Positions 46,588-62,045 of a stretch of 64,000 nt of DNA are shown in pieces. The notes below the pieces were generated by a model, which did not search any database, was not told the origin of the DNA, and saw nothing but the letters and a program-made list of their open reading frames with translations. Position numbers and translations under genes: made by a program. The number at the start of each line of letters is the position of its first letter. The stretch's first letter is position 1. The DNA lies in contig CM030338.1 in the NCBI GenBank assembly GCA_017654855.1, forward strand, positions 2,356,001 to 2,420,000, given 5' to 3'. Origin of the DNA: Podospora anserina (Eukaryota).

Positions 46588-49500
46588 ATGTCGACTTCAA
46601 GACCAGCCGAGCATCTGACCATTGGCTACCCGCCACAGACCGTGTCCGCTCAGAACCGCTCCAACTCCCCAACAAGCACCTCCCCCAACGACCCCCAGTC
46701 CGCCGGCAGCACCCTGAGGTCTCCATATGGTCTTTCTCCAGGTCTGACGCCCACCTCCAAGATGCCGGGTGCTTCGCGCTCTGGTGCCGGTTCTCCGAAT
46801 CACGAGATGGCGGCGTCTGGCCGTTTGTTCTCCAAGCGGTAAGCTCCCAGCCACTCCACTCCCATCCACCTCCGGGTGAACACATGTGCTGATTTTTCAA
46901 ACTCCAGGGCCCGAGAAATCCAAGCTCAAGAAGGCATCCCGGGAATCCCGGTGAATCCCTGGGGCGGACCTCCGACTAGCGGCAACTCGACTCCTCTTCG
47001 TGAAAACATCCCCGAGTCGCCGACCGATGGCTTCCCCGACTTCGCACAGCTACCCACACCACAGGAGCTTCCCTCAACACGCCGTGCTCGTGCCGGCACC
47101 GTTCCGTCTCGCTTCTCCCCGGGTGGGGCCGGCAATGGATTGCTTGCCATCCCGTCTCTGGCTTCCAAGACGTCTCGTCCAAGCCCCTCTCAGACGCCGT
47201 TCAAGTCTCCATCACCGGGCATCGAGTCATCCGGCAACGATATTTCCAATGCTTCAGCACTTCTCTCGAGGCTGAGGGCTGGCTCCATGCCACAAAGAAG
47301 CCCGTTCGCCCACGTGCCTGGCACCAGCTCTCCGTTTGGTCCTTCTATCTTCAGCAGCTGGAACCCCACCGGGACAGGGCGCGACAGAGGCAACACACTG
47401 GCCAGCATTGCCAGTGTTCCTTCCAACGGGCCTAGTTCTCCCGCGCAGTCTCACTTTTCCCGAGAGGGCAATGCTGAGAGTGATGTTCATATGAGAACGC
47501 TGGACTACCTTGGTCTTGCGGAAACACCTCAGCCCGCACGAGCTCAGATTGCTACTCCGACATATGTCCCCAACTATGCCGATTTCTCCAAGGCCGCCAA
47601 CCGTTTCCGGTCTTACTCGGTGAACAACAAGGACAGGTATGCGGACGAAGATGAGGATGATTATGACGACCCGGTCATGATGATGGAGAACCAGTATTTG
47701 CAGATTCAGGATCAGCTCGCTGCCACCAATGCTGCCATCCAGCAGCACAACCTGGCCGTCCAGGCCTTTGCGAACCAGGCCGCCCGTCCTCGTGCCAGGA
47801 CCGCTGGTGTGCTGGATACTCCGGCATCCCGCGTTCTTCGCAACTACTACCCCACTCCCTCCAGGCTTGATGAATCCATCACGGCCTCTGACATCCGTGT
47901 TTCTGGTGACAAGGAATACGATGATCTTCCGCAAGCCGTTGCTGGGTTGTCGCTTGGTAGGTCCAACAGTCGCAACAATGGCCTCTTGAGCGCCGAAGAA
48001 CAGGGGCTGGAAGGTCCAACTAGTGCTTTGTGGCTCGGCAGCATCCCCACATCCACCACCACATCGACCCTGACGGAGATGTTCAAGTCGTACGGACCTA
48101 TCTTGTCAGCTAGGGTCTTGACTCACAAGAACTGCGGCTTTGTGAACTTTGAACGGGTCGACAGTGCCATCTCCGCCAAGAACACAATGAATGGAAAGGA
48201 GATCTTCCCTGGTGCCGGGCCCATTCGCATCAACTTTGCGAAGCCCCCCTCCGCTTCCAACACGCCAGGACATGACGGAGCCATGCCCTCGCCCAGCCCT
48301 GATCCGTTTTCCAAGGGCCAGGACAACTCTCAGGGTATGGGCACCGGTGCTCCCGGCGACTCTTCTCCCGCTGCGCTTGTGGGCACTGCGACGCCGACCG
48401 TGCCCCCTCTTGCTGAGATGACCGGTGATATTCTCAGTATTGTTGTCCAGTTTGGGGCGACTGAGGAAGACAAGTACAACATCTCGGCTAGCCTCCAGCG
48501 GGCGATCCAGTACGGCGAGTTCGTTGACGAAATCCCTCCCATCAAGGAACCTGCGCACACCAGAATCCACGATGCGCCCAAGCTCCGGGATATCCGCAAA
48601 AGGATTGACAACCAGGCCTTGTCCCAGGCCGAGATCGAGAGCATTGCCGTTGACATGCTTCCCGAGATTGCCGAGCTTTCTTCGGATTACCTTGGCAACA
48701 CGGTCGTCCAGAAGCTCTTTGAGCACTGCTCTGATGATGTTCGCGATCAGATGCTGGCCGAGATCGCGCCGCACATGGCCGAGATTGGCGTCCACAAGAA
48801 CGGAACCTGGGCTGCGCAGAAGATTATCGAAGTGTGTAAGACACCGCACCAGATGAACCTCATTGTGCAGCACTTGCGCCCTTACACGATCCCTCTGTTC
48901 TTGGATCAGTACGGCAACTACGTTCTCCAGGGCTGCCTGAAGTTTGGAAGTCCCCACAACGACTTCATCTTTGAGACCATGCTGAGCAGAATGTGGGAGG
49001 CGGCGCAGGGACGATATGGAGCTCGCGCCATGCGGGCTTGTCTAGAGAGCCACCATGCCACCAAGGACCAGCAGAGGCTGCTTGCTGCCGCCATTGCTCT
49101 CCACAGTGTCAAGCTTGCGACCAATGCCAACGGTGCGCTGCTCTTGACCTGGTTCCTGGACACCTGCACCTTCCCACAGAGACGCACAGTTCTCTCGCCC
49201 CAGCTTGTGCCCTACTTGGTCAATCTGTGCACCCACAAGGTTGCTTACCTGACGGTCCTCAAGGTTATCAACCAGAAGGCCGAGGGAGACGCCAGAGACA
49301 CCGTTCTCAAGGCGCTCTTCTTCACCCCCAATGATCAGGTTTTGGAGGCGATCCTGAGCGACCACGCCTGCGGAGCCACCTTGATTTTCAAGGTGCTCAC
49401 CACGCCCTTCTTTGACGAGACAATCCGCAGCCAGGTAGTCGAGACGGTCAAGAATGTGTTGATTCGCATCAAGGCCCAGCCGGGACAGGGTTACAAGCGG

Positions 49501-50248
49501 CTGATGGATGAAGTTGGACTGTCCACCCGCAGCGGTGGAGGCGGTGGAAACAGCGCCTCTCGCGATCACAGCAATGACAACAGGCAACGACCAGGCTCGA
49601 GACAGACCCCCGGCAACGCTCAGCACCACCAGCAACCGCAGCAGGCTCAACAAGCTCAGCAGCAGCAGCAGCAAGGTGGACAGTACAACGGCAATGCCGC
49701 TCCTCAGTACTACAACCATCTCAATGCCCCTGCTGGCGTTCCTGGTTACGACATGGCATATGGAGTTCCCCGTGGCGAGGGGGTTGATGCCGGCTTGACC
49801 CAGCAGTTCCCAACCTTCCAGCAGGGAGCCATGTACAATGCACCAAACACGCCCATGGCACCCGCCTCCATCCAGCAGATGCAGTACCAGCAGGCCATGA
49901 TGCGGGGAGGGCCGCCCATGAGCAACTACTACTCTGCCGCAGTCCCTGCTGGCTTCAACGGGTATCCGGACCAGTACCGTAACATCGGTAGCCCGATCCA
50001 GCCCCCGAGCGCTCAGCTGTCGAACGTCCCCGGACAGGCGCCATTCCCTCCGGCCCCCGGATTCGGCATGAACATGAGTTATGGCTATGGTGGCCAGGGA
50101 CAGATGCCACCCAACATGGGATACATGCCGCAGCAGGAGCAAGGCAACAACAGCCGACGTGGACGTGTAGGTCGCAGCCCACAACCTGACAGACGCCGTC
50201 AGTGAACTGGGAACATGTTACTCACATCTGACACTGTAACAGAGATGA
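46588..50248 (+). CDS. JSN1: RRM + Pumilio-repeat RNA-binding protein (Jsn1/Puf1-Puf2 type); exons 46588-46838, 46908-50166, probable last exon 50243-50248
   Basis: RRM (ALWLGSIP...KNCGFVNF) and PUF repeats (SDYLGNTVVQKLFE, HKNGTWAAQKIIE, DQYGNYVLQ, GRYGARAMR, NANGALLL), with a Q/G-rich tail. If the terminal intron is not spliced, the ORF ends at 50205. Confidence 0.9.
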
Positions 50249-51236: not shown

Positions 51237-54200
51237 CTACTTATTCCCCGTCCCACCCCTCAACCACTCCCTCACCACCCCTCGTTTCTTGACCACCTTG
51301 TTTATTACTCCTCCTCCTCCACCACCTTTGATGTCGCCCGTGGCAGTGGCGGGAGTGAGGCCCTCTTGAACAGCATCAATCTCCTCGTATTCTTCCTCGG
51401 TGACTCCAGAGGTATACTCATAGTCAAACCCCATCATCTTCCCCTTCAGATCCCCGACAGGAGTCCCGCTGGTTGGAGAAGGAGTCTGACTCCCCAACCC
51501 CATCCCCGCCTCCCTCATCCTCTCCAACCCCCTCGCCAACGGCCCCACAAACACCGCCTCCCCTTCCTCCTCGATCCCCTTCCTCTTCTGCCACTCCACA
51601 TCCTTGAACCCCTGTTGTCCTCCTCCCGACTCAAACGGCGGAGGCGGACTCACACTCGGCGCGATGGGGGAGTACCCCCCCTCCTCCCCCGGTAGCACAG
51701 CAGCAGAATCCTTCCTCATCATCCCCATCATCAACCCCTTCCTCCACAGCGCCGGAAACCGCCCCTCAAACTCCCTCTCCAACTCCCCCTGCCTCTCCTC
51801 CACCTCCCTGAGTCGTTCCACCTTCCTCCCAGGCACCAGCTCATTCCCCTTACTCCCCTTCCCCTTCCCCTTCCCCCCCCACCCCTCCAACCAGGCCTCA
51901 AACAACCCATCCCTCTCCCTGCCCTCCTCCTCAGTCAAACTCCCCCCTTTCTGCCTCAACCCATCCAGATACTCCTTCGCTTCTTGCGTCATCTTTTCTC
52001 CCGAGATGTACCTATCGAAACTGGCCGAAAACTCCCTGTAATGACCCTTGAGCACAAAACACCTTCCCTTCCACCCCTTTTCCCCGAATTTTTTGCCCAG
52101 CGCCGAGGCAGTCGGGCATTCCCATGGAAATTCTATCACGCGGTCGTAAAAGACCACGCAGCGGCAGGTCGACCACTTGGAGAACGACCGTCGTGATTGG
52201 TCGTCCACAAAGGTGTCTTCTACCATTTCCAGGCTTGCCCAACTGATAAACTTGAGTGGGGCTCGTAAATTGATGGAGTTGTGGATGTGGGACCGTTCGA
52301 AATCGGTGCTGGAGCGCAGGTCAACCAACAAGATCCCCTTGGAGGGGTAAATCTCCAAGAGGCGGTTCAGATGGCCCGGGAGTATCATGTCTGGCTCGTC
52401 ACCCGGGTCGACTGGTTCGCTGGAGGGGAGGCGCAAGGTCTGGAGGTTGGTGTCCAGCCGGTGCTGTTCCCTGCGGTTGTGGAACCAGATCCTGATGTCG
52501 TTCGTTTCCACCCCCAAATGGGAGGCCAAATGCTCAAGGACTGCTAGGTTTGGTTCGGGGTCGCGGTGGAAGTATTCTTCTAGGCGGTGGAGGACGTGTT
52601 TGGCTAGTTGGTGGCCTGGGGGGATTTCTTCGTCCGGCGAAAAAGTGGAGCGTTTGGAGGATTTGGAGCGGTTGAGGATCATTGTTCTGGTTATGTCGGG
52701 GGTGTGATGGGAGGGGGAGGTGAGGGAGGCTGGGCGGGGTTGTTGTTGTTGTTGTTGTTGTTGTTGGCCTGAGAGGGATATGGCTGAGCCCATGTTTCTT
52801 AGGGAGGTGAATAAGCTGCTGGAGGAGGGCTGAGGGGTGAGGACTTGGGAGTAGGGGGTTAAGGGCATGGAATCGGCTCGGTGGGTTGATGTCCAGGGGT
52901 CTGCGGGGATGTTTGGTACGCTGGCCCCGTGGCGGACGGTTTCCATGTTTTCGGTCTGGGCGAGGGTAGATCCGGAATAGGATTCGGCATCGTCCTGGGC
53001 GAGCTCTGGTTGGACTTCACGGCTGAGCTCTGGTTGTACTTCCTGCGTCACGGTGGCAGGGACGCTTGCTTCAGCTGGTGTTGGCTCGGGACTACTCTCT
53101 TTTGGTTCTCGCAACAGGTTGTTTGACCGAATGAATGCCACAAATGAACATGCTGGATCGTCAGGAAGAAAATCCCACACCATCACCGGTAGTGATAGCA
53201 ACAAAAGTGTCGAATGGCTCTTGAAGACGCCTTGCACCTTGACAAACTTCGCCAGCGCAGGAAAGCTTGCCAGCCACTCCTCCCACTTATTCAAATCCAG
53301 CTTCTGGTCATCCTCCAGAGCCAGGGAAATCATCACGTGAGGCTCGTCCTCATTCGGCTCCGAGGCCGTCGGAATCATGTCATCCATCGAGGATGGGAAT
53401 GGCTGGTGCCAGTCCCGACCCGTTGGGACTGAGCTCGATGCCATGCCACGACGGGACTTGGCAGGTTTTGGTGGCACCAGTCGGCATATCTCGATGCTGG
53501 GTGCTTTGTGGTTCGACGTCATCATGAAGTGAACTGGTGTTGATCTCGCCTCGAAGTGTTTGCCGTTGATCAAGATGGGACGTGGATGCTTCAAACGAGC
53601 AAGGACCTCGGCGTGCAGCATCGCGGCCGAGAATGTCTTTCCTCTCCACTCTTCAAGAACCTCGATCAAGGTGTTGGTGAAAGAATATCTTCCCGGATCA
53701 GGGGCGATGGCGTCCCAACTCGAAGCGGAGATGGTCTCGGTGATGCTTTGGCCTGTCGGGAATGTGGCACTGGCTGCTCCGGCACAACAGTCGAGAAGAA
53801 TCAACACATCTGATATTGATCTTTCGAGGAGAGTTTGGATGGCAGACCATTGTAGCCACGGTGAATCATGACGGCGATTACTACAAGAGTTAGTCGAGAG
53901 GGTTGAGGGTCTGATGGCAGAGTCGTAACATACGCGCACCAGGTGCTCTGCCGTGACTCGTCTATCCTGGCATGACCTCCATAGTAGACCACGAATAGTG
54001 TCTGTTCGGATTCGTATTGTTTGACCATGTCGCCAATCCTGAGCATCAACTCCAGGTGAGAGTTCTCAGACGGAATCGAAAAGATGTCGGTCTCGAAGCA
54101 GTAGTGATCCCGGAAGCACTTCTCCAAGTCCTCCAACTCTGGCAAAACAAACAAATCATCGCTCTTCCAGTGAAGCATCAGGGCGTGGACCTTGGTGTAT

Positions 54201-54562: not shown

Positions 54563-55119
54563 GGTGGAGAGAGAGGCGAATCCCCCGTGGATTCAAGTAA
54601 CCATCAAAATAAGGGGACTGAACCAAATAGCGGAGAAGCTGACTATTGTCGCCTGGAACGATGTATTTACCTCGTCTTGAAGCTATCTATGATTAAGAAT
54701 GATGATTGTAGAAACAACAAGAAGTGGGCAGTTTGAAAGAGGGGCCTTGGAAACGGTCAAATGGTAAAGAGGGATGGAAAAGGTCAGAGATCAAGCATCT
54801 GCCGCACCGCTTATTCAACGACCTATGCTATCAGCCATGTTATGCGCTGTGCTGTGAGTGGGCGTGCTTGAAGGAGAGGCTGAGCAGTTTCGCCGTTGCA
54901 GCCGGTGCCCAAAAGGGGTTAGTGTGGGTGGGCTTCGGTGATGCTTTGGGCAAGGACCATGGGTGGGTCAAGACACCCGAGACAGCCTGTCATTCTGACC
55001 AATCAGATGCTGCCACTTTAGGCTTCTGGGGGCTGTTATTCAACGTCAACTCACGAGTGAACTCACCTATTATCAACCATCAACATCAAAGTCTGTGAGT
55101 AATCAGGAAGACTGTGACC

Positions 55120-56661
55120 ATGAGGGAAAGAATTACGTTTGTGCAAAAGGAGGGTGACTCGATAGAGCCCACAGCCTTGAAAGTCGACGGCAACGGACTG
55201 AAGGGCCCAGAAGTGAAGGCCGTCCGCGAAGACAGGCTGACATTCGCCCTGGATGAGTTGCCTGCGGAACTCAAAGCCTTGTTAGAGGGTGTCAACCAAC
55301 TACACGTCCGATGGGTCAGTCCCGTCGCATATGAGGCTGTTAGTCCATTACTAGCACGTCTTCCTCCTGGCTTCCACCTGTTCTACACTCCTGGCAGTGA
55401 TGCATTGTAAGCTTACCAGTCTTGTATACCCATCCATATACTGTACTAACATGCCCTCAGAATCAACCCCTGCCCCCTCCTCACCAAAGCATTCGGCCTC
55501 GACTCCTGCTCCTCCCCCTCGGACTCCTTCACCACCCTCCCAACCGACCGCTTCACCCACTCCACAACCCACCAATTCTACCAACCCCTCCCCTCCCTCA
55601 AAGCCTTCGCCCACTTCGCCAGATCCCTCCTCTGCCCCCCAGGCTCCCCTTCATCCTGCTCCTCCCGCGTCGGTTCCCTCACCGCAGCCAGCCAACTCGA
55701 CCTCTCCTATGATACAATCTCTCACACCCTCCGCCTAACCTCCCTCTGGCCTTACTCCCCCCAATCCCTATCAGCATCCCTCCTCTCCCCCACCATCCGC
55801 ACCGAAATCGGCATCCTCTCCCAAACCTCCCCCAAAACCCTCGAACCCCACGAAATCGGCATCTCAGGCCTCTTGACCGTCCTAGGGCAATCAACCACCC
55901 CCTCCCCAACATTATTCTCCTTCCCCTCCCGGCACAGGGACTCCTCCTCCTCCTTCCAAGCCCACTTCCTCCCCCCGACAGGCCTCCACCCAACCCTCCA
56001 GCTATCAATCTCCTCCCCTTCACCCCCGGCAAAATCCCCTACTGAAGAAACCTGCCGTTTACACGGGTACTTCACCCTTCCCAAAACCCTCTTCCCTGAT
56101 CGTCACCAGCTCAACGATCCCCTTTTTCTGTCGTCTAAAAACCTGACTGCGGTTCGGTATATCACCCCTGGAATCGACCTCGAAGCACCAGTGTATGTAA
56201 CCTCCACATGGGGCTCTACCCTCCTTCTCGAGCTTGCTCCCCCCCATTCTTCTTCTTCTGGAAAAGAATGGACAGCCGAAATCCCGCTTCATCTACGGTA
56301 TTTGCCTCCCAGTTTAACCGGGTATCAAAAGGCGGAGGTGCCCTACCCGGCATTGTTCTGGGCTTGCACAGCGGAGGAGGGGACGAAATTCCCGGGCAAC
56401 CCCTTTGAGAAGGACAGGGTGGGCTATGATGGGTTGTTTGGGGAGAGGACGGTGTTTTGGCATTTGAATCCCTCGCCCGCGGACGGGAAACTGGTAAACA
56501 CTGTCAAGGTCCCGGTGCTGAACCTGGAAAAGGCAGACTGGGTCGGGACTGTGACCGGGGCCGTGGTGGTGGCTGGGTTTGCGTGGGTGGTGATCAAGTT
56601 GCTTGGGGTCGTGGTGATGGGTGGGAAGAAGGTTGGTGAGGACAAGAAGAAAAAGCAGTGA
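55120..56661 (+). CDS. PBN1: Pbn1/PIG-X, GPI mannosyltransferase I subunit; intron 55407-55460
   Basis: MRERITF, REDRLTF, RLPPGFHLFYTP, PTGLHPTLQL, LPKTLFPDRHQL, DLEAP and IPLHLRYLPP, then a C-terminal TM and a KKKKQ ER-retention-like tail. Confidence 0.88.
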
Positions 56662-56825
56662 GAGGGATTGGATGAGGTAATCATGAGGGACAGAAACAAG
56701 AGAATCATTGCGAGGCTTTCATAGCATGTGATTGATGGATTGATAATACAGACATAATCCGATACCTACCAATCTTATCTCTCGAGATATATTTCAAGAA
56801 CCTTTGCAAGTAGCCAGTTATTTTA

Positions 56826-57233
56826 GAGAGAACCTTTACGGAGCCCCCCATTTATCTTGCAAGTTCCCCACCCACCTGATATAGAATTAACTATATTTTA
56901 AAGGATGATTATTAAGTGTTAAGAAATAATTAATAGGCTTTAAAAATAGTTAAAAGACGGAAAGGATAGTTCAAAGGCCTTAAAAGATACTTAACAGGAC
57001 TTAAAAGATAGTTCAAGGGTCTTGAAGGATAGTTCAAGGGCTTTAAAAGATAGTGTAAAGGCCTTTAAAGATAGTTTACAAGCCTTTAAAGATAGTTTAC
57101 AAGCCTTTAAAGATAATTTAAAGGCCTTTAAACTATCTGAAAGTCCTTTTACTATATTATAAAAAAAGTAAGTAAATAGGTAGGGAGAGGGGCACTGGTA
57201 AGAGAAAATAAGGGGCTCCGTAAAGGTTCTCTC
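56826..57233. mobile_element. Non-autonomous DNA transposon (MITE-like, 408 bp), AT-rich and RIP-like
   Basis: Perfect 22-bp TIR GAGAGAACCTTTACGGAGCCCC (56826-56847) / GGGGCTCCGTAAAGGTTCTCTC (57212-57233), extending imperfectly to ~50 bp. It is flanked by the identical 8-mer TTATTTTA (56818-56825 and 57234-57241). The interior is much more AT-rich than the flanks. Confidence 0.88.
56930..57135. repeat. Degenerate ~21-bp tandem array (AAGGCCTTTAAAGATAGTTTA-like) inside the transposon
   Basis: About 9 diverged copies, e.g. aagcctttaaagatagtttac repeated near 57060-57120. Confidence 0.8.
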
Positions 57234-57536
57234 TTATTTTATCCCAACAGCGTTAGATACCTCCCACAAGAGCAACACACGCAGGCATATATCACAACCA
57301 ACCAGCAAGTTTGAATCACACCAAACACCAAAAAATAATCGTCTCTTGTTTTGGAAAATTGTATACTTCATCTTCCCACCCAAAACGCCGAAAACGTGTA
57401 TTTTACGGCCCCTCTCCCCCTCCCTTTCCTCCACCCAACCAAAACCACTTAAACATACATTGAGCCTGCTACTACTCTGACTAGGTATCCGCTGAAACCT
57501 GTCTGCGTACATAGAATACGAGAAAAAAGAAACATT

Positions 57537-59012
57537 TTAAACACCAAATCCCTGTGAACTCGCTGCTCCCGCCCCCCCTGAACGGCCCTTCGGACCGGTT
57601 ATAGCCCGATGAGTTATCGGCTGCGTCTCCTATTTGCAGTGCTCAGATAAGTCGCGCAGTTTACACTGATCACACGCGATCTGTTCAAAGTACGACCCCC
57701 CTGTACATACAAGATGAGCATCCTGGCATGGATGACAGATCTGATGGCCGGTGGTGGTTTTCCGTTGCTGTGCAGCCGGCTTGTAATCCCTTCGAGGCCT
57801 GTTCAAGACAGGATCATATTTGCACTGATCATGCGTCTGGTGATCTTTACATTGCTTGCATGGGGATTTCCGATCACATGGGATTCCTCCTCCTCTGTCC
57901 GCACATGGGAAACAATACGCGGTAGACTTTGCTTCTTTTTTTTCGTGCGCCACTTCTCTTATATGTTCCCGGAGAAACTTTTCACTTTTGAATCCAGTTT
58001 CGTTCCGGCAATTGGGGAGCGGACAATAATGGCGACCCCCACCCGCTGCGGGAGGCTGATTCCCATCGTGAGGCTGCGAGTTCGGGAGAGGCTGACCTTC
58101 TTCGTGCGCCACATCTTTCATATGTTGCCGGAGATTTTTTTCACTTTTGAATCCAGTTTCGTTCCGGCAATGGGGGAGTGGACAATACTAGCGACCCCCA
58201 CGCCTTGCGGGAGGCTGGTTCCCATCGTGAGGCTGCGAGTCTGGGAAAGGCTGACCTTCGCCGGCAGAGAACCCACTGTTCGAAAAACCATAGTGCGGCA
58301 AATTGTCTTGAGTAAAGAGTTGCGAATCTTCTTCAGGAGGCTGATTGGTTTGAGGAGGCATGACTTCTTCTCGGTATTCATCCTCCCAAAGAGACTGCGA
58401 ATTTTGGGAAGGTTGCCCTTCGTTGGTATCGAACCCACCATCCAAAAATCCAGAGGGTAGCACACCATCATCATCATCATCATCAAGAAAAGACAGATTC
58501 TCCTCAGGAGGCTGATCAACTTGAGAGGGCATGATCTCTTCTCGGCGTTCTTCCCCCCGAAGAGGCTGCGGGTGTTGGGAAGGCTGACCTTCGTCGCCAT
58601 GATTTCCACTAGTCGCCCAACGATAGTACTCGAAATTGGCTTCATTTTGCAAAAACGGATCCTGATCGGGAGGCGCGTCGGCATATGGCCGCCAGATTAT
58701 GTTATCATCTGGCCCACTGGTCAAGAAACGACAGGGCGACTCAGATATAGGCGCATCTTCTCTAGGGGGCCGATCCTTCTTGGCAGACTGCTAGTCTTTG
58801 AAAAGCTCATTTTCGTCCTCAGACACCATACTCTGAAAATCAACGGACGTTTCCAGCCACGGCGCCCCAGGAACCTGAGCGGAGTACACCAAAACGGAAC
58901 GATTTCGTACGGGCTTGGCTTCTCGGAATAACATCCGAAAGATCCACGGATCCAATCCCCGACCGGTTGACAATCGTCCAGGAAATAAATCCCTTCCAGG
59001 CTGACCTTGGCT
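57537..59012 (-). CDS. In-frame C-terminal continuation of SNF5 (2x C2H2 + 2x Zn2Cys6-like), interrupted by TAG at 58793-58791, 58190-58188 and 57632-57630; candidate A-to-I-edited extension, alternatively a pseudogene
   Basis: ORF-track pieces 58791..58973, 58188..58724 and 57630..58121 all share the frame of the SNF5 last exon (59013..59369). The gaps between them contain no stop, and the first non-TAG stop is TAA at 57539-57537. Confidence 0.65.
57942..58259. repeat. 159-bp tandem duplication, each copy encoding a C2H2 finger on the - strand
   Basis: 57942-58100 and 58101-58259 both begin ttcgtgcgccac and end ggctgaccttc. They translate as HYCPLPNC..FKSEKFLREHIREVAH and *YCPLPHC..FKSEKNLRQHMKDVAH. 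Confidence 0.92.
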
Positions 59013-61416
59013 CTAGGAAGTCCGCGTATGATTCGGATTCAAGGCGGGTATGACGATCCCCGTCCCTCCAGCTGGCGCCCCACTACCGGCCCCAACACTC
59101 GGACTCCTCCCATCTCCCACCACTGGCAGCCCGCCGCCTCCGGCCAGCCTCGCCCTGACCCTCTCCTGATGCGTGTTGTTCTTCCTCAGATGCACCTCAA
59201 AGCCCTTGACCGTGTGCTCCGGACCAACGGTATAACTCTTGCCCGGACAGTCTGCACACTTGATCCTAGGCAAGAATACGTATTTTGTCGTGGGCAAGGC
59301 CATCTGTTCCGGGGTGAGAGGCAAAGGCATCGAGTTCCCTGTTTCGGAGTTGATGGCAAAGTACCGCATTGTAGAGTCAAAGATGTCGTTGGGGTAATCG
59401 CGGCGAAGCTCATCGAGACAGGCTGTGAGCCACGCTGGTGGTGGTGGCTAAGGGCAGGGTATGAGTACCTAGCCAACACGGGCTCGAAGTGGGACAAGGG
59501 GTCAAACTTACGGCTGCAATCTTGGGTTGTGTGCCATCCGGGTTCGGTGGTGGAGCCGGAATGCCATCTTGCTGGTTCTGAACATTAGGGACCACGGCGC
59601 CGCCTGCTGCTGATGGCGTTGACGGTGGGCCCATCGAACCCGCCACGCCCGGAGCTCGTAGGTGAGCAGGCGTTGGTGTAGCTGAGCCTAGCGCTGCCAG
59701 CGGCCTCGGCTTGTACTCCCGCATAAACTTCCTAAGTCGAGCCGGGTTGACACGCAGAGTGATCATGTATTGTTGTGGCACATCTTCTGTCTGCTCCCTG
59801 GTGGCCTCCCGGCCATACCGCCGAGACGTTCGGGTCTCGTGGTGGTGGATGACAGCCTCAGGGGTCTCGGATCGGCCAATATTGGCCATGCGCTGGGCAG
59901 CTGCCGTGGCGGCGCCGCGCATACCCCTGGTTCTGGCGGTCCCTTGAAGCTGAGACACGGCCGGTGAATCAGGATCAGACTCGTCACTGTCTTCCGAGTC
60001 TGAAAGGTCGACACCATCTCTGAGTGTTCTCTTGCCTCCCCTGCCAGCCCCAACACCAGTGGCGCGCTTGAACAGCCGGCTTTCCTCAATGTTTAGAGCT
60101 GCACCGGGCAGCACCGAGGATACGATCGAAGTTCGGATGGTCCTTTGCCTTTCCTTAAGATCCGGCAACTGAGGCCCACCACGTCTGTTGGTAGAACGCT
60201 TCTGTCGCCTCTGCTCACGTGAGAACATGTTTTCGGTTCGTTCCAGTTCGGCCTCGGTATTCTCGTACAAGTACGGTGCGTAGTCCTTGGCTTGTTGTTG
60301 AGGTCGGAACACAGATGGAAGGGGTGTAGGCAAGAAGGCAGCAAGGAGGTCTGGATCCTCGATTGGCCGGCCGTCGAATGGATGGCCCACACTGTACAGA
60401 CTGCGCGTGAAGAGCTGGACCTGTTCCCTGATGCAGTGAGCAATGGCGGTTGTGAACTCGCCCGACAGAGAGAGGTCCCGGGCCATGCAAGCAGCAAATT
60501 CCTCGGGCGAGTTCAGGGGGTTGTTGAGCTCCCATTCAAATTGGTCCACAAGCGTGTGTGCCCCAATGGTGATGTTGAGTTTGATCAGGATGCGCATCTC
60601 GTCATTCTTGTATGCCGAATAGGGGAGCTCGGGGTCGAGGGCTTCCTCTTCCGAGTGGACGAAGGGGAAAAAATCCTGGAGCTGTTCCGTCATCTGGGCA
60701 ACCACTTGGTCATAGACAGGTTTGGCCAGAGGCGGTTCGAGGCCCATGTCTTCGACCAGTTCGGCGGCAAAGTGTTCGACTGACACGAGGCGCTCATAGA
60801 GGTTGAAGGTAAAGGTATCCCGGAGCTTGATTCTGTCGTAGTCCACATCTATCCGGACGGGAACCAGTTCTTCAGGCTGCTCTGCCTGCTTCTTGATCTG
60901 GGACTTTGTGAACTTGACAGGTGGCGTGGCCCTGCGACCGGGGCGACGCCTCTGGGAGGGATATATGAGCTTGGTAGTCCCGCCATTCTCCGTGTAGCCG
61001 TTGCCATAACCGCGGTAGCCTTCACCATATAACCTAGCCGGATACTGGTGATAGAACTCCTTGTAGGTCTTGAAGTCACTGGTGCGCGCAAGCACATCCT
61101 TGGTAGTCTTTTCGAGCCGTATTTGATCTTCGCCGAGAAGAGAAGAATGAACCCAGTCGCGTGTCTGGAAGCGGTCCACCATGACTCTTGTGAAGCTGTC
61201 CTTGTCGCGTATGGGGAGCGCCGCATCCCCATCCTCGGGCTCGGGGCTTGTGGCAGAGGATTTAGTTGGGCCATCGGCAGGTGTGGATGCAGAAGGCTGG
61301 TGGGAAGATGATGGGCCGTCGACCTGGACGTCGGTGTCAGGGGGGAGGTCGGCGGCAGTGGTCGACGTGGACGACGTGCCCAGTGCTGGTGGTGCTGACC
61401 CTTGGAGAGCAGCCAT
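59013..61416 (-). CDS. SNF5: SWI/SNF chromatin-remodelling core subunit Snf5; exons 61416-59512, 59447-59013 (start approximate)
   Basis: Two SNF5 repeats (EELVPVRIDVD..KLRDTFTFN..FAAELVED; EMRILIKLNITIG..LVDQFEWE..PEEFA..GEFTTAIAHCIREQ). The last exon reads PPPPAWL..PRIKCADCPGKSY..FEVHL and ends at TAG 59015-59013. Confidence 0.92.
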
Positions 61417-62045
61417 TGCCGCGAGGTAGCGGGTATGTTTCGTATGTGTCTGCTGGATATGGTGGAATAGAGGGAATTCGATGGGGTACGTTAGCAAATA
61501 GTGGCTAGGAGGGGTGCAGCCTTGTTGCTGTGTTGCGTATCAATGGACTGTCGTTGAGCGTGAATGGTGAAGTGAAGCAAAGCAAATTGCAAGGCTGCTG
61601 CTGCTGCTGGCTTCAGATCAATGGGCGCCAGAGAGATGCGAAAGTGCAAGAAACGGCGAGGCGCGCGTCGCAGCAGGAGCCAATGGGACGCGAGAAGGTA
61701 GCGTCAAGGAGCTCAAGAGTATCAGGTACTTCTATCCTAAGTATAGATCAGGTGAAAAACAGGGTAGCCAGTACTTTATTGCAATCAAGGTAGCAATGTG
61801 GCCCGTGCCTACCACTCAGAAGCCCAGAAGGAGGTCATAACGTGGTGGGGTGCAGCGACGAGCGAAGGCACAAATGCAAAGAAGAACCCCGCCTTCACAA
61901 AATCAAGCAACCGCAACAGGCTCAAAATCGTCACGCCCCGCCAGCCGCCTTGATTGTTTGCTCTCCCCCCCCTTCCTCCCCTCGCTCAGTACTATTTTGT
62001 TTATTTCCCCGACTGTCCACCGCTCGTTCGAGTCCAGCCGCCAAA

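Follow-up and report, generated by a model that had tools for sequence, protein, structure and literature searches.

A long minus-strand frame of Podospora anserina that is interrupted by TAG codons was found directly behind the stop codon of the gene for SNF5, in a window of 64,000 nt taken from contig CM030338.1 (assembly GCA_017654855.1, positions 2,356,001 to 2,420,000). This frame may well be a decayed or marginal lineage-specific open reading frame (ORF) of zinc-finger-like character, located in the 3' region of the SNF5 transcript. The 1.47 kb behind the SNF5 stop would then be the remnant, or a marginally surviving form, of a gene that is restricted to the lineage and specifies a small zinc-binding protein, with an acidic repeat region, two C2H2-like fingers generated by a 159-bp in-frame tandem duplication, and two clusters of six cysteines (Cys6). 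The candidate frame is transcribed, either on the 3' part of the SNF5 mRNA or overlapping it, without splicing, and its UAG codons stand unchanged in the sampled RNA. A ribosome would stop at the SNF5 UAG, and therefore the frame behind it would not be made as one protein. Numbering the four TAGs in the order of the mRNA, TAG 2 and TAG 3 would be ordinary nonsense codons, and TAG 4 either the original stop or the product of a TAT-to-TAG change. Anatomy, SNF5 stop, transcription and the absence of RIP and of homologues are established below, whereas we infer that the frame once coded and is now non-functional.

The SNF5 stop codon and the frame behind it

A Pfam search found a full SNF5 domain (PF04855, E 4e-71) in the 709-codon frame at 59413-61539. 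The 144 codons at 59016-59447 share 99% identity, at 100% query cover, with the C-terminus of the 779-aa SNF5 of Podospora pseudoanserina, and 91% identity with SNF5 of Triangularia setosa, and both of these proteins terminate at the position of TAG 1. When the two exons in the window are joined across a 64-nt intron, the product is 779 aa long and identical to a Logan-derived protein (P0011), and it differs from five annotated Podospora models of equal length at internal positions only. PODANS_7_8430 of P. anserina S mat+ has in common with it an identical head of 635 and an identical tail of 131 residues; in this older model (766 aa) only the last intron is drawn differently from the 779-aa models of the sister species, and the 64-nt intron that gives 779 aa is backed by the RNA contigs of all four runs described below. 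The annotated SNF5 proteins of six Podospora species were grouped in one 90% cluster. Judged from these comparisons, TAG 1 is the ordinary canonical stop of SNF5 (PODANS_7_8430), and the window is a part of P. anserina chromosome 7.

As TAG 1 is the SNF5 stop, only three TAGs are left in the candidate frame behind it; the open minus-strand frame as a whole runs from 59447 to 57537 and ends with a TAA (57537-57539). The preliminary description had placed four TAGs at 57627..59018. All four exist, with the end coordinates of that interval off by 3, and three of them lie within the candidate frame, while TAG 1 belongs to SNF5 and TAG 4 may be the frame's own stop. The four mRNA contexts that it gave were confirmed from the sequence (Table 1), and its remark that there is no internal TAA or TGA and that many CAA, CAG and TGG codons are retained also held: the stretch 59012-57537 comprises 492 codons with three TAGs, no TGA and a TAA at the terminus only, and the frame keeps 25 CAG, 12 CAA and 5 TGG codons. 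By comparison, mononucleotide shuffles of the same stretch (n = 2000) gave a mean of 22.5 stops and a minimum of 8. The stop-free ORFs that begin with ATG inside the frame are 47, 114 and 163 aa long. Taken as a possible target of premature-stop-correcting (PSC) editing, this is an otherwise open frame of 491 codons that holds TAG 2, TAG 3 and possibly TAG 4 as in-frame UAGs.

Table 1 Features of the SNF5 3' end and of the candidate frame, in window coordinates. AF2, AlphaFold2; pLDDT, predicted local distance difference test; TRF, Tandem Repeats Finder.
Feature	Position	Strand	Observation
Last SNF5 intron, 64 nt, GT..AG	59448..59511	-	Joint 59447/59512 in 4/4 runs
Last coding exon of SNF5, 144 codons	59016..59447	-	Same frame as candidate ORF; splice 59447/59512 in 4/4 RNA contig sets
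TAG 1, SNF5 canonical stop, UCC-UAG-AGC	59013..59015	-	Podospora SNF5 models end here; predicted 10-nt hairpin loop
73 open codons between SNF5 stop and TAG 2	58794..59012	-	In-frame ATG 58827-58829, 12 codons ahead of TAG 2; no Pfam match
TAG 2, GAC-UAG-CAG	58791..58793	-	Predicted 3-nt hairpin loop; no other letters in covering contigs, 4/4 runs
Acidic repeat units A1 and A2 (57 and 54 aa), both beginning EGQP	58260..58592	-	67% nucleotide identity; older than finger duplication
TAG 3, CGC-UAG-UAU	58188..58190	-	Codon directly ahead of finger 1; CAT (His) in repeat copy 2; predicted 7-nt loop with 2-bp closing stem; no other letters in covering contigs, 4/4 runs
159-bp tandem duplication, 2.0 copies, in frame	57942..58259	-	TRF; 53 codons per copy, 88% identical, no indels, one C2H2-like finger each
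C2H2-like finger 1, C-x4-C-x14-H-x5-H	58104..58187	-	Sub-threshold Pfam C2H2 families; AF2 block pLDDT 69-80, helix residues 16-29
C2H2-like finger 2, C-x4-C-x14-H-x5-H	57945..58028	-	PF23077 E 2.2e-4, 21.3 bits against cut-off 27; AF2 block pLDDT 64-75, helix residues 69-82
Cys6 cluster 1, spacing 2-8-5-2-8, then K-Y (TAT)	57816..57914	-	No Zn_clus match; AF2 pLDDT <50
Cys6 cluster 2, spacing 2-6-10-2-8, then K and TAG 4	57633..57737	-	No Zn_clus match; AF2 pLDDT <50
TAG 4, AAA-UAG-GAG	57630..57632	-	Own stop of frame or Tyr (TAT)-to-stop change; predicted in stem, P(unpaired) 0.02
30 more open codons and closing TAA	57537..57629	-	Frame listing

Transcription of the locus and context of the UAG codons

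RNA contigs from four runs (X1, X10, X12 and X15), belonging to four studies, were placed on 55000-61700. The PIG-X intron 55407-55460 and the last SNF5 intron were spliced out in all four, and therefore the four contig sets are RNA-derived; removal of the SNF5 intron also makes the contigs minus-sense at this place. All four TAGs were covered by spliced contigs in every run, and no difference from the genome was listed. In no run did a contig over TAG 1, TAG 2 or TAG 3 hold any other letter, and the X12 contig 57464-58008, which lies over TAG 4, contains one unplaced other letter that is absent from the difference table. As the stage of the runs is not recorded and contigs drop minority variants, the absence of edited letters weighs little against editing that is partial or limited to the sexual stage.

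In three of the four runs a single contig reached from the SNF5 coding sequence down to 58142, and contig breaks occurred only at the 159-bp repeat, as is expected of a repeat, and in X15 also at 59111-59113. An intron that would remove the TAGs was considered and rejected, since no joint was present inside 57464-59012 in any of the four runs. Transcripts of the locus are unspliced and, as assembled, retain the TAGs. Compared with SNF5, the 3' part had a contig depth of about 1.1x in X10, 1.8x in X12, 3x in X1 and 4-6x in X15, a measure that cannot rank the parts of a gene and from which no separate transcript was deduced. The contig ends at 57464 (X10 and X12), 57395 (X1) and 57573 (X15), beyond which 57016-57463 is almost uncovered, were not used as a 3' end.

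The joining of SNF5 to the region behind it bears on a stop-loss extension of SNF5, in which its own UAG and then the three next in-frame UAGs would be edited, adding up to about 490 residues with zinc-binding modules in sexual tissue. Stop-loss editing affects hundreds of genes in Fusarium graminearum and Neurospora crassa (PMC11156358), and the SNF5 UAG resembles the canonical UAGs edited in this way (PMC11156358; the DBF2 case, PMC13123824) in its U at -1, its G at +1, its predicted 10-nt loop and the open in-frame stretch that follows, the candidate frame being that of the last SNF5 exon. Yet one frame in three would be shared by chance, a single contig may span two genes that are transcribed separately, and four independent edits per molecule would be rare unless each were near-complete; moreover, no edited form was seen in the RNA contigs of the four runs, and read-through would reach another UAG 73 codons further on. 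Such an extension is very improbable.

The preliminary description regarded all four UAGs as lying in contexts favourable to A-to-I editing. The preference described for F. graminearum is C/U at -2, U at -1, A/G at +1, G at +2, and A/G at +3 and +4 (PMC9600606). A purine at +3 was indeed found at all four UAGs, for which the chance is about 1/16, and the other preferred positions are mixed: C/U at -2 in three of four, G at +2 in one of four (with a depleted base in two), and a purine at +4 in two of four. Each UAG satisfies four to five of the six positions, two of which (U at -1 and G at +1) are automatic for UAG. The folding that it proposed as a check gave a similarly divided answer. In folds of +-30 nt, TAG 1, TAG 2 and TAG 3 are predicted in hairpin loops of 10, 3 and 7 nt and TAG 4 in a stem, but control UA sites of the same transcript are in hairpin loops as well in 24 of 47 cases (51%); about 62% of the edited sites of F. 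graminearum are in hairpin loops of such folds (PMC9600606). The contexts are compatible with editing, yet they are not discriminating.

Encoded features, coding signal and surroundings

The repeats allow copies to be compared within the frame. Between the acidic units A1 and A2 the NG86 dN/dS is 0.44 and the differences by codon position are 24/10/18, the second position being the least changed. A perfect (CAT)x6.7 run of the plus strand at 58466-58485 corresponds to the D6 stretch of A1 on the minus strand and explains part of the difference in length between A1 and A2. The two copies of the 159-bp repeat show 18 differences (8/3/7 by codon position) and a dN/dS of 0.84; both ratios are estimated from about 53 codons each and have low power. 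Over the two repeat pairs together the differences are 32/13/25, and this smallest change at the second codon position would be a modest sign of former coding.

The C and H ligands are all kept in both fingers, and the single-sequence AF2 model places helices over the His pairs of both, in blocks of pLDDT 64-80. A Pfam search at E<=10 on the two finger copies returned C2H2-type families only (PF00096, PF23077, PF12171 and others), several of them just below threshold and none at its gathering score; the best profiles were PF23077, with 21.3 bits against 27, and PF00096, with 11.4 against 25.2. In a canonical C2H2 finger the gap from Cys to His is x12. Both copies thus resemble such fingers in their C...C...H...H order and in the predicted helix over the His pair, and differ from them in their x14 gap. 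A Foldseek search of the PDB with the AF2 model gave no match at E<=0.001, and its weak rows (E>=1.6) were mostly C2H2 proteins. Applied to the candidate frame at E<=0.1, Pfam returned no family.

The two Cys6 clusters had been labelled Zn2Cys6 in the preliminary description, a name that the Pfam search does not bear out: no Zn_clus (PF00172) row appeared even at E<=10, whether with the 103-aa Cys part, the 185-aa finger/Cys part or the whole frame. The Zn2Cys6 consensus is CX2CX6CX5-12CX2CX6-8C. Cluster 2 fits this spacing, whereas cluster 1 does not, as its first loop is of 8 residues instead of 6. The clusters share with this family the six Cys each and, in cluster 1, an aromatic residue two positions past the last Cys, and the AF2 model (mean pLDDT 48) is not confident there and is uninformative for them. 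At the last Cys, cluster 1 reads TGC AAA TAT GA and cluster 2 reads TGC AAA TAG GA, so that the paralogous residue of TAG 4 is Tyr, one transversion away. The paralogous column of TAG 3 in repeat copy 2 is CAT (His). Thus neither column supports an ancestral Trp, contrary to the earlier suggestion that Trp fits the protein at the third and fourth TAG.

Repeat-induced point mutation (RIP) had been discounted as a source of the TAGs because of the retained CAA, CAG and TGG codons, the lack of an internal TAA or TGA and the normal GC content, and the indices, now computed, agree. In general, RIP is indicated by TpA/ApT above about 0.89 and (CpA+TpG)/(ApC+GpT) below about 1.03, together with low GC. 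The stretch 57537-59012 has 0.43 and 1.42 at a GC of 0.519, close to the window as a whole (0.63, 1.23 and 0.539), and RIP was therefore rejected. Codon usage of the candidate frame is atypical and not gene-like. Its GC at third codon positions is 0.47 against 0.63-0.66 in SNF5. For 40 in-frame gene chunks the codon log-likelihood is 0.20 +- 0.12 per codon, whereas the frame reaches 0.038 and its finger/Cys part, at -0.076, falls under the lowest of these chunks (-0.044).

With the codon content of this frame, a random nonsense change gives TAG with a probability of 0.39-0.47, so that three of three stops would all be TAG in 6-10% of cases and two of two in 15-22%; only 4.4% of substitutions create a stop at all. 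Two other frames of the same stretch have just seven stops each, and the window contains 17 TAG-only frames of at least 300 codons, most of which are off-frames of real genes. On these three counts the TAG pattern alone is not significant.

No relative of the encoded product, in which Trp at the TAG columns could have been sought, was found in any of the collections searched. The read-through product with TAG as Trp (399 aa) gave no match in a word-indexed search of 5.8 billion proteins, either among 1631 candidates of 219-699 aa or among 135 candidates of 30-218 aa; phmmer with the 185-aa part against 1.84 billion representatives gave none at E<=0.001, and a PDB sequence search none at E<=10. 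The six annotated Podospora proteomes in the protein collection contain no gene model for any piece of the candidate frame. One metagenome locus with 44% identity to the 185-aa part over 43 residues was on a bacterial-looking contig and was set aside as a chance match, and the nearest ESM Atlas clusters, at 0.76-0.77 only, are leads at most. Without a homologue, with nearly neutral fingers (dN/dS 0.84) and with a weak codon score, the corrected product does not present itself as a conserved or functional protein.

ESM recognition was 2515 for the candidate frame and 893 for a 269-codon stop-free frame on the opposite strand (57651-58460, plus; 426 codons with a single TAG; no Pfam match), which is probably a mirror effect of the minus-strand frame. 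If anything codes at this stretch, the minus frame would be the one to do so. Together with the constraint seen in the repeats, the ESM values point to a frame that codes weakly or formerly did, and not to pure noise. It is quite unlikely that the stretch never coded and is a SNF5 3' untranslated region in which composition and in-frame tandem repeats leave few stops and the zinc-finger look arose by chance. The seven stops in each of two other frames, the opposite strand open for 269 codons, the lack of a Pfam family at threshold, the mean pLDDT of 48 and the codon usage would all suit that explanation, but it leaves aside the difference in ESM recognition, the complete set of C and H ligands with their predicted helices, the several C2H2 families just below threshold and the codon-position differences in both repeat pairs.

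The stop-free ORFs raise another alternative, in which an internal or separate transcript yields a short protein and no editing is needed. The ORF from an ATG at 58121 to 57633 (163 aa) would encode one C2H2-like finger and both Cys clusters, TAG 4 would be its normal stop, and the part upstream would be decayed 5' sequence. Besides the stop-free ATG-ORFs themselves, the RNA contigs that cover the locus are in favour of it; however, the base at -3 of this ATG is C, the contig-joined RNA carries the entire SNF5 ORF and numerous ATGs ahead of it, the worst codon score falls in this very part, and the searches of protein collections put no such protein on record. The chance that it is made is slim.

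Between the convergent PIG-X gene and the candidate frame there is an AT-rich spacer (56700-57536, GC 0.372), which is the only RIP-like stretch of the window (TpA/ApT 1.24, (CpA+TpG)/(ApC+GpT) 0.93) and contains a tandem array of 21/42/63 nt at 56926-57132. The loose ends of RNA contigs at 56822-56858, which continue into other sequence, hint at a short dispersed repeat there. Rfam over 56600-59600 returned three rows only, at 57049-57143 and far under the gathering score, and Pfam found no family in the opposite-strand ORFs or in the -1 frame ORF. The neighbouring long frames encode a protein with a homeodomain and a rhodanese domain (51243-54065, minus) and a PUF/RRM RNA-binding protein (46843-50199, plus); among them no transposon gene was seen beside the candidate frame.

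Decay or editing, and what either would mean

Decay of the frame is favoured by the young finger duplication, which is nearly neutral (18 differences), next to the older A1/A2 repeats with some past constraint. Several points weigh against it. The 491 codons contain three nonsense codons and no frameshift, TAA or TGA, which is the look of a frame kept open for UAG correction; neutral decay that yields two to three stops should have brought indels too, and the absence of frameshifts beside two to three nonsense codons is the best argument for a maintained frame. A purine at +3 is present at every UAG, and a hairpin loop is predicted for three of the four. A-to-I mRNA editing is described as common in Sordariomycetes (PMC11087585), and among the 71 stop-corrected pseudogenes of F. 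graminearum are 43 for hypothetical proteins and 16 with expression in every stage (PMC10776026). Lastly, the RNA contigs lack a recorded stage and minority variants, and the dN/dS values, from 53 codons each, have little power.

These points lead to the alternative that the frame from the ATG at 58829 is a gene of the sexual stage. A Tad2/Tad3/Ame1 deaminase would turn the UAGs of TAG 2 and TAG 3, and perhaps of TAG 4, into UGG in perithecia, and a protein of about 400-430 aa with C2H2-like fingers and Cys clusters would be made during sexual development only. We consider this unlikely. Its strongest support is the frame itself, with TAG as its only internal stop and no frameshift in 491 codons. 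At every site -1 is U, +1 is G and +3 is a purine, and TAG 2 and TAG 3 have in addition the C at -2 that is among the described preferences (PMC9600606) and a predicted hairpin loop. There is no RIP signature, the ATG has A at -3 and G at +4, the product is protein-like by ESM recognition, and the A repeats show some past constraint. Editing is described as common in this class of fungi (PMC11087585), and two corrected sites occur in 6 of the 71 F. graminearum cases (PMC10776026).

Against it stands, first, the lack of any listed difference between RNA and genome in the four runs, a weak objection given that stage is not recorded and minor variants are dropped. No homologue was found, the codon usage is atypical and the fingers are nearly neutral; the hairpin result equals the 51% control rate; and TAG-only stops have a chance of 6-22% in a finding that was selected for this very pattern. 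A literature search yielded no editing-site data for Podospora in print; a preprint (10.1101/2024.12.09.627484) notes only that ADAT genes are differentially expressed in P. anserina sexual development. It is similarly improbable that the locus is a P. anserina lineage gene of the sexual stage alone, whose product appears after two to three UAG-to-UGG edits; in the boldest form of this proposal the SNF5 UAG would be edited too, and this subunit of a chromatin remodeller would carry a fused zinc-finger tail in perithecia.

Fusarium and Neurospora provide well-documented cases of stop-correcting and stop-loss editing (PMC11156358), with which the Podospora frame has points in common. Like the PSC pseudogenes of F. 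graminearum (PUK1 and the 71 PSC genes; PMC11156358, PMC10776026), it has in-frame UAGs in an open frame, a product that would be called hypothetical and RNA that, like that of 16 of the 71, may occur outside sexual tissue; the TAGs of those pseudogenes often derive from codons other than TGG (PMC10776026). Given these precedents, orphan status, constitutive RNA and a His or Tyr ancestry are compatible with editing. It differs from them in that no A-to-G change was observed, that it has three UAGs where the F. graminearum catalogue names at most two sites per gene (PMC10776026), and that it is unannotated, lacks an orthologue in other fungi and lies in frame directly behind the stop of another gene. 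The longer product of Neurospora rfk-1 arises by editing of an early UAG (bioRxiv 10.1101/2020.12.30.424869), and this too is a lineage-restricted gene whose longer product needs an early UAG to be read as sense in sexual tissue; however, nothing ties the Podospora locus to meiotic drive, and editing is a candidate only.

The preliminary observation is thus partly confirmed and was overstated, as TAG 1 is the SNF5 stop, the name Zn2Cys6 lacks support and the paralogous columns do not speak for Trp. Two cautions follow for frames of this kind: a TAG-only frame beside a real gene takes in that gene's own stop codon, and long TAG-only frames are common in this GC-rich genome. If the UAGs are uncorrected, which is the more likely case, the locus is an ordinary decaying or marginal ORF in a long 3' region of the SNF5 transcript. 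If instead they are corrected in perithecia, P. anserina would possess a zinc-binding protein that is unannotated, specific to its lineage and switched on by RNA editing alone, with more corrected stops per gene than the F. graminearum catalogue names (PMC10776026). It would be the first documented case of stop-correcting editing in Podospora, and a clean test case in a classical genetic model with easy crosses and perithecial RNA.

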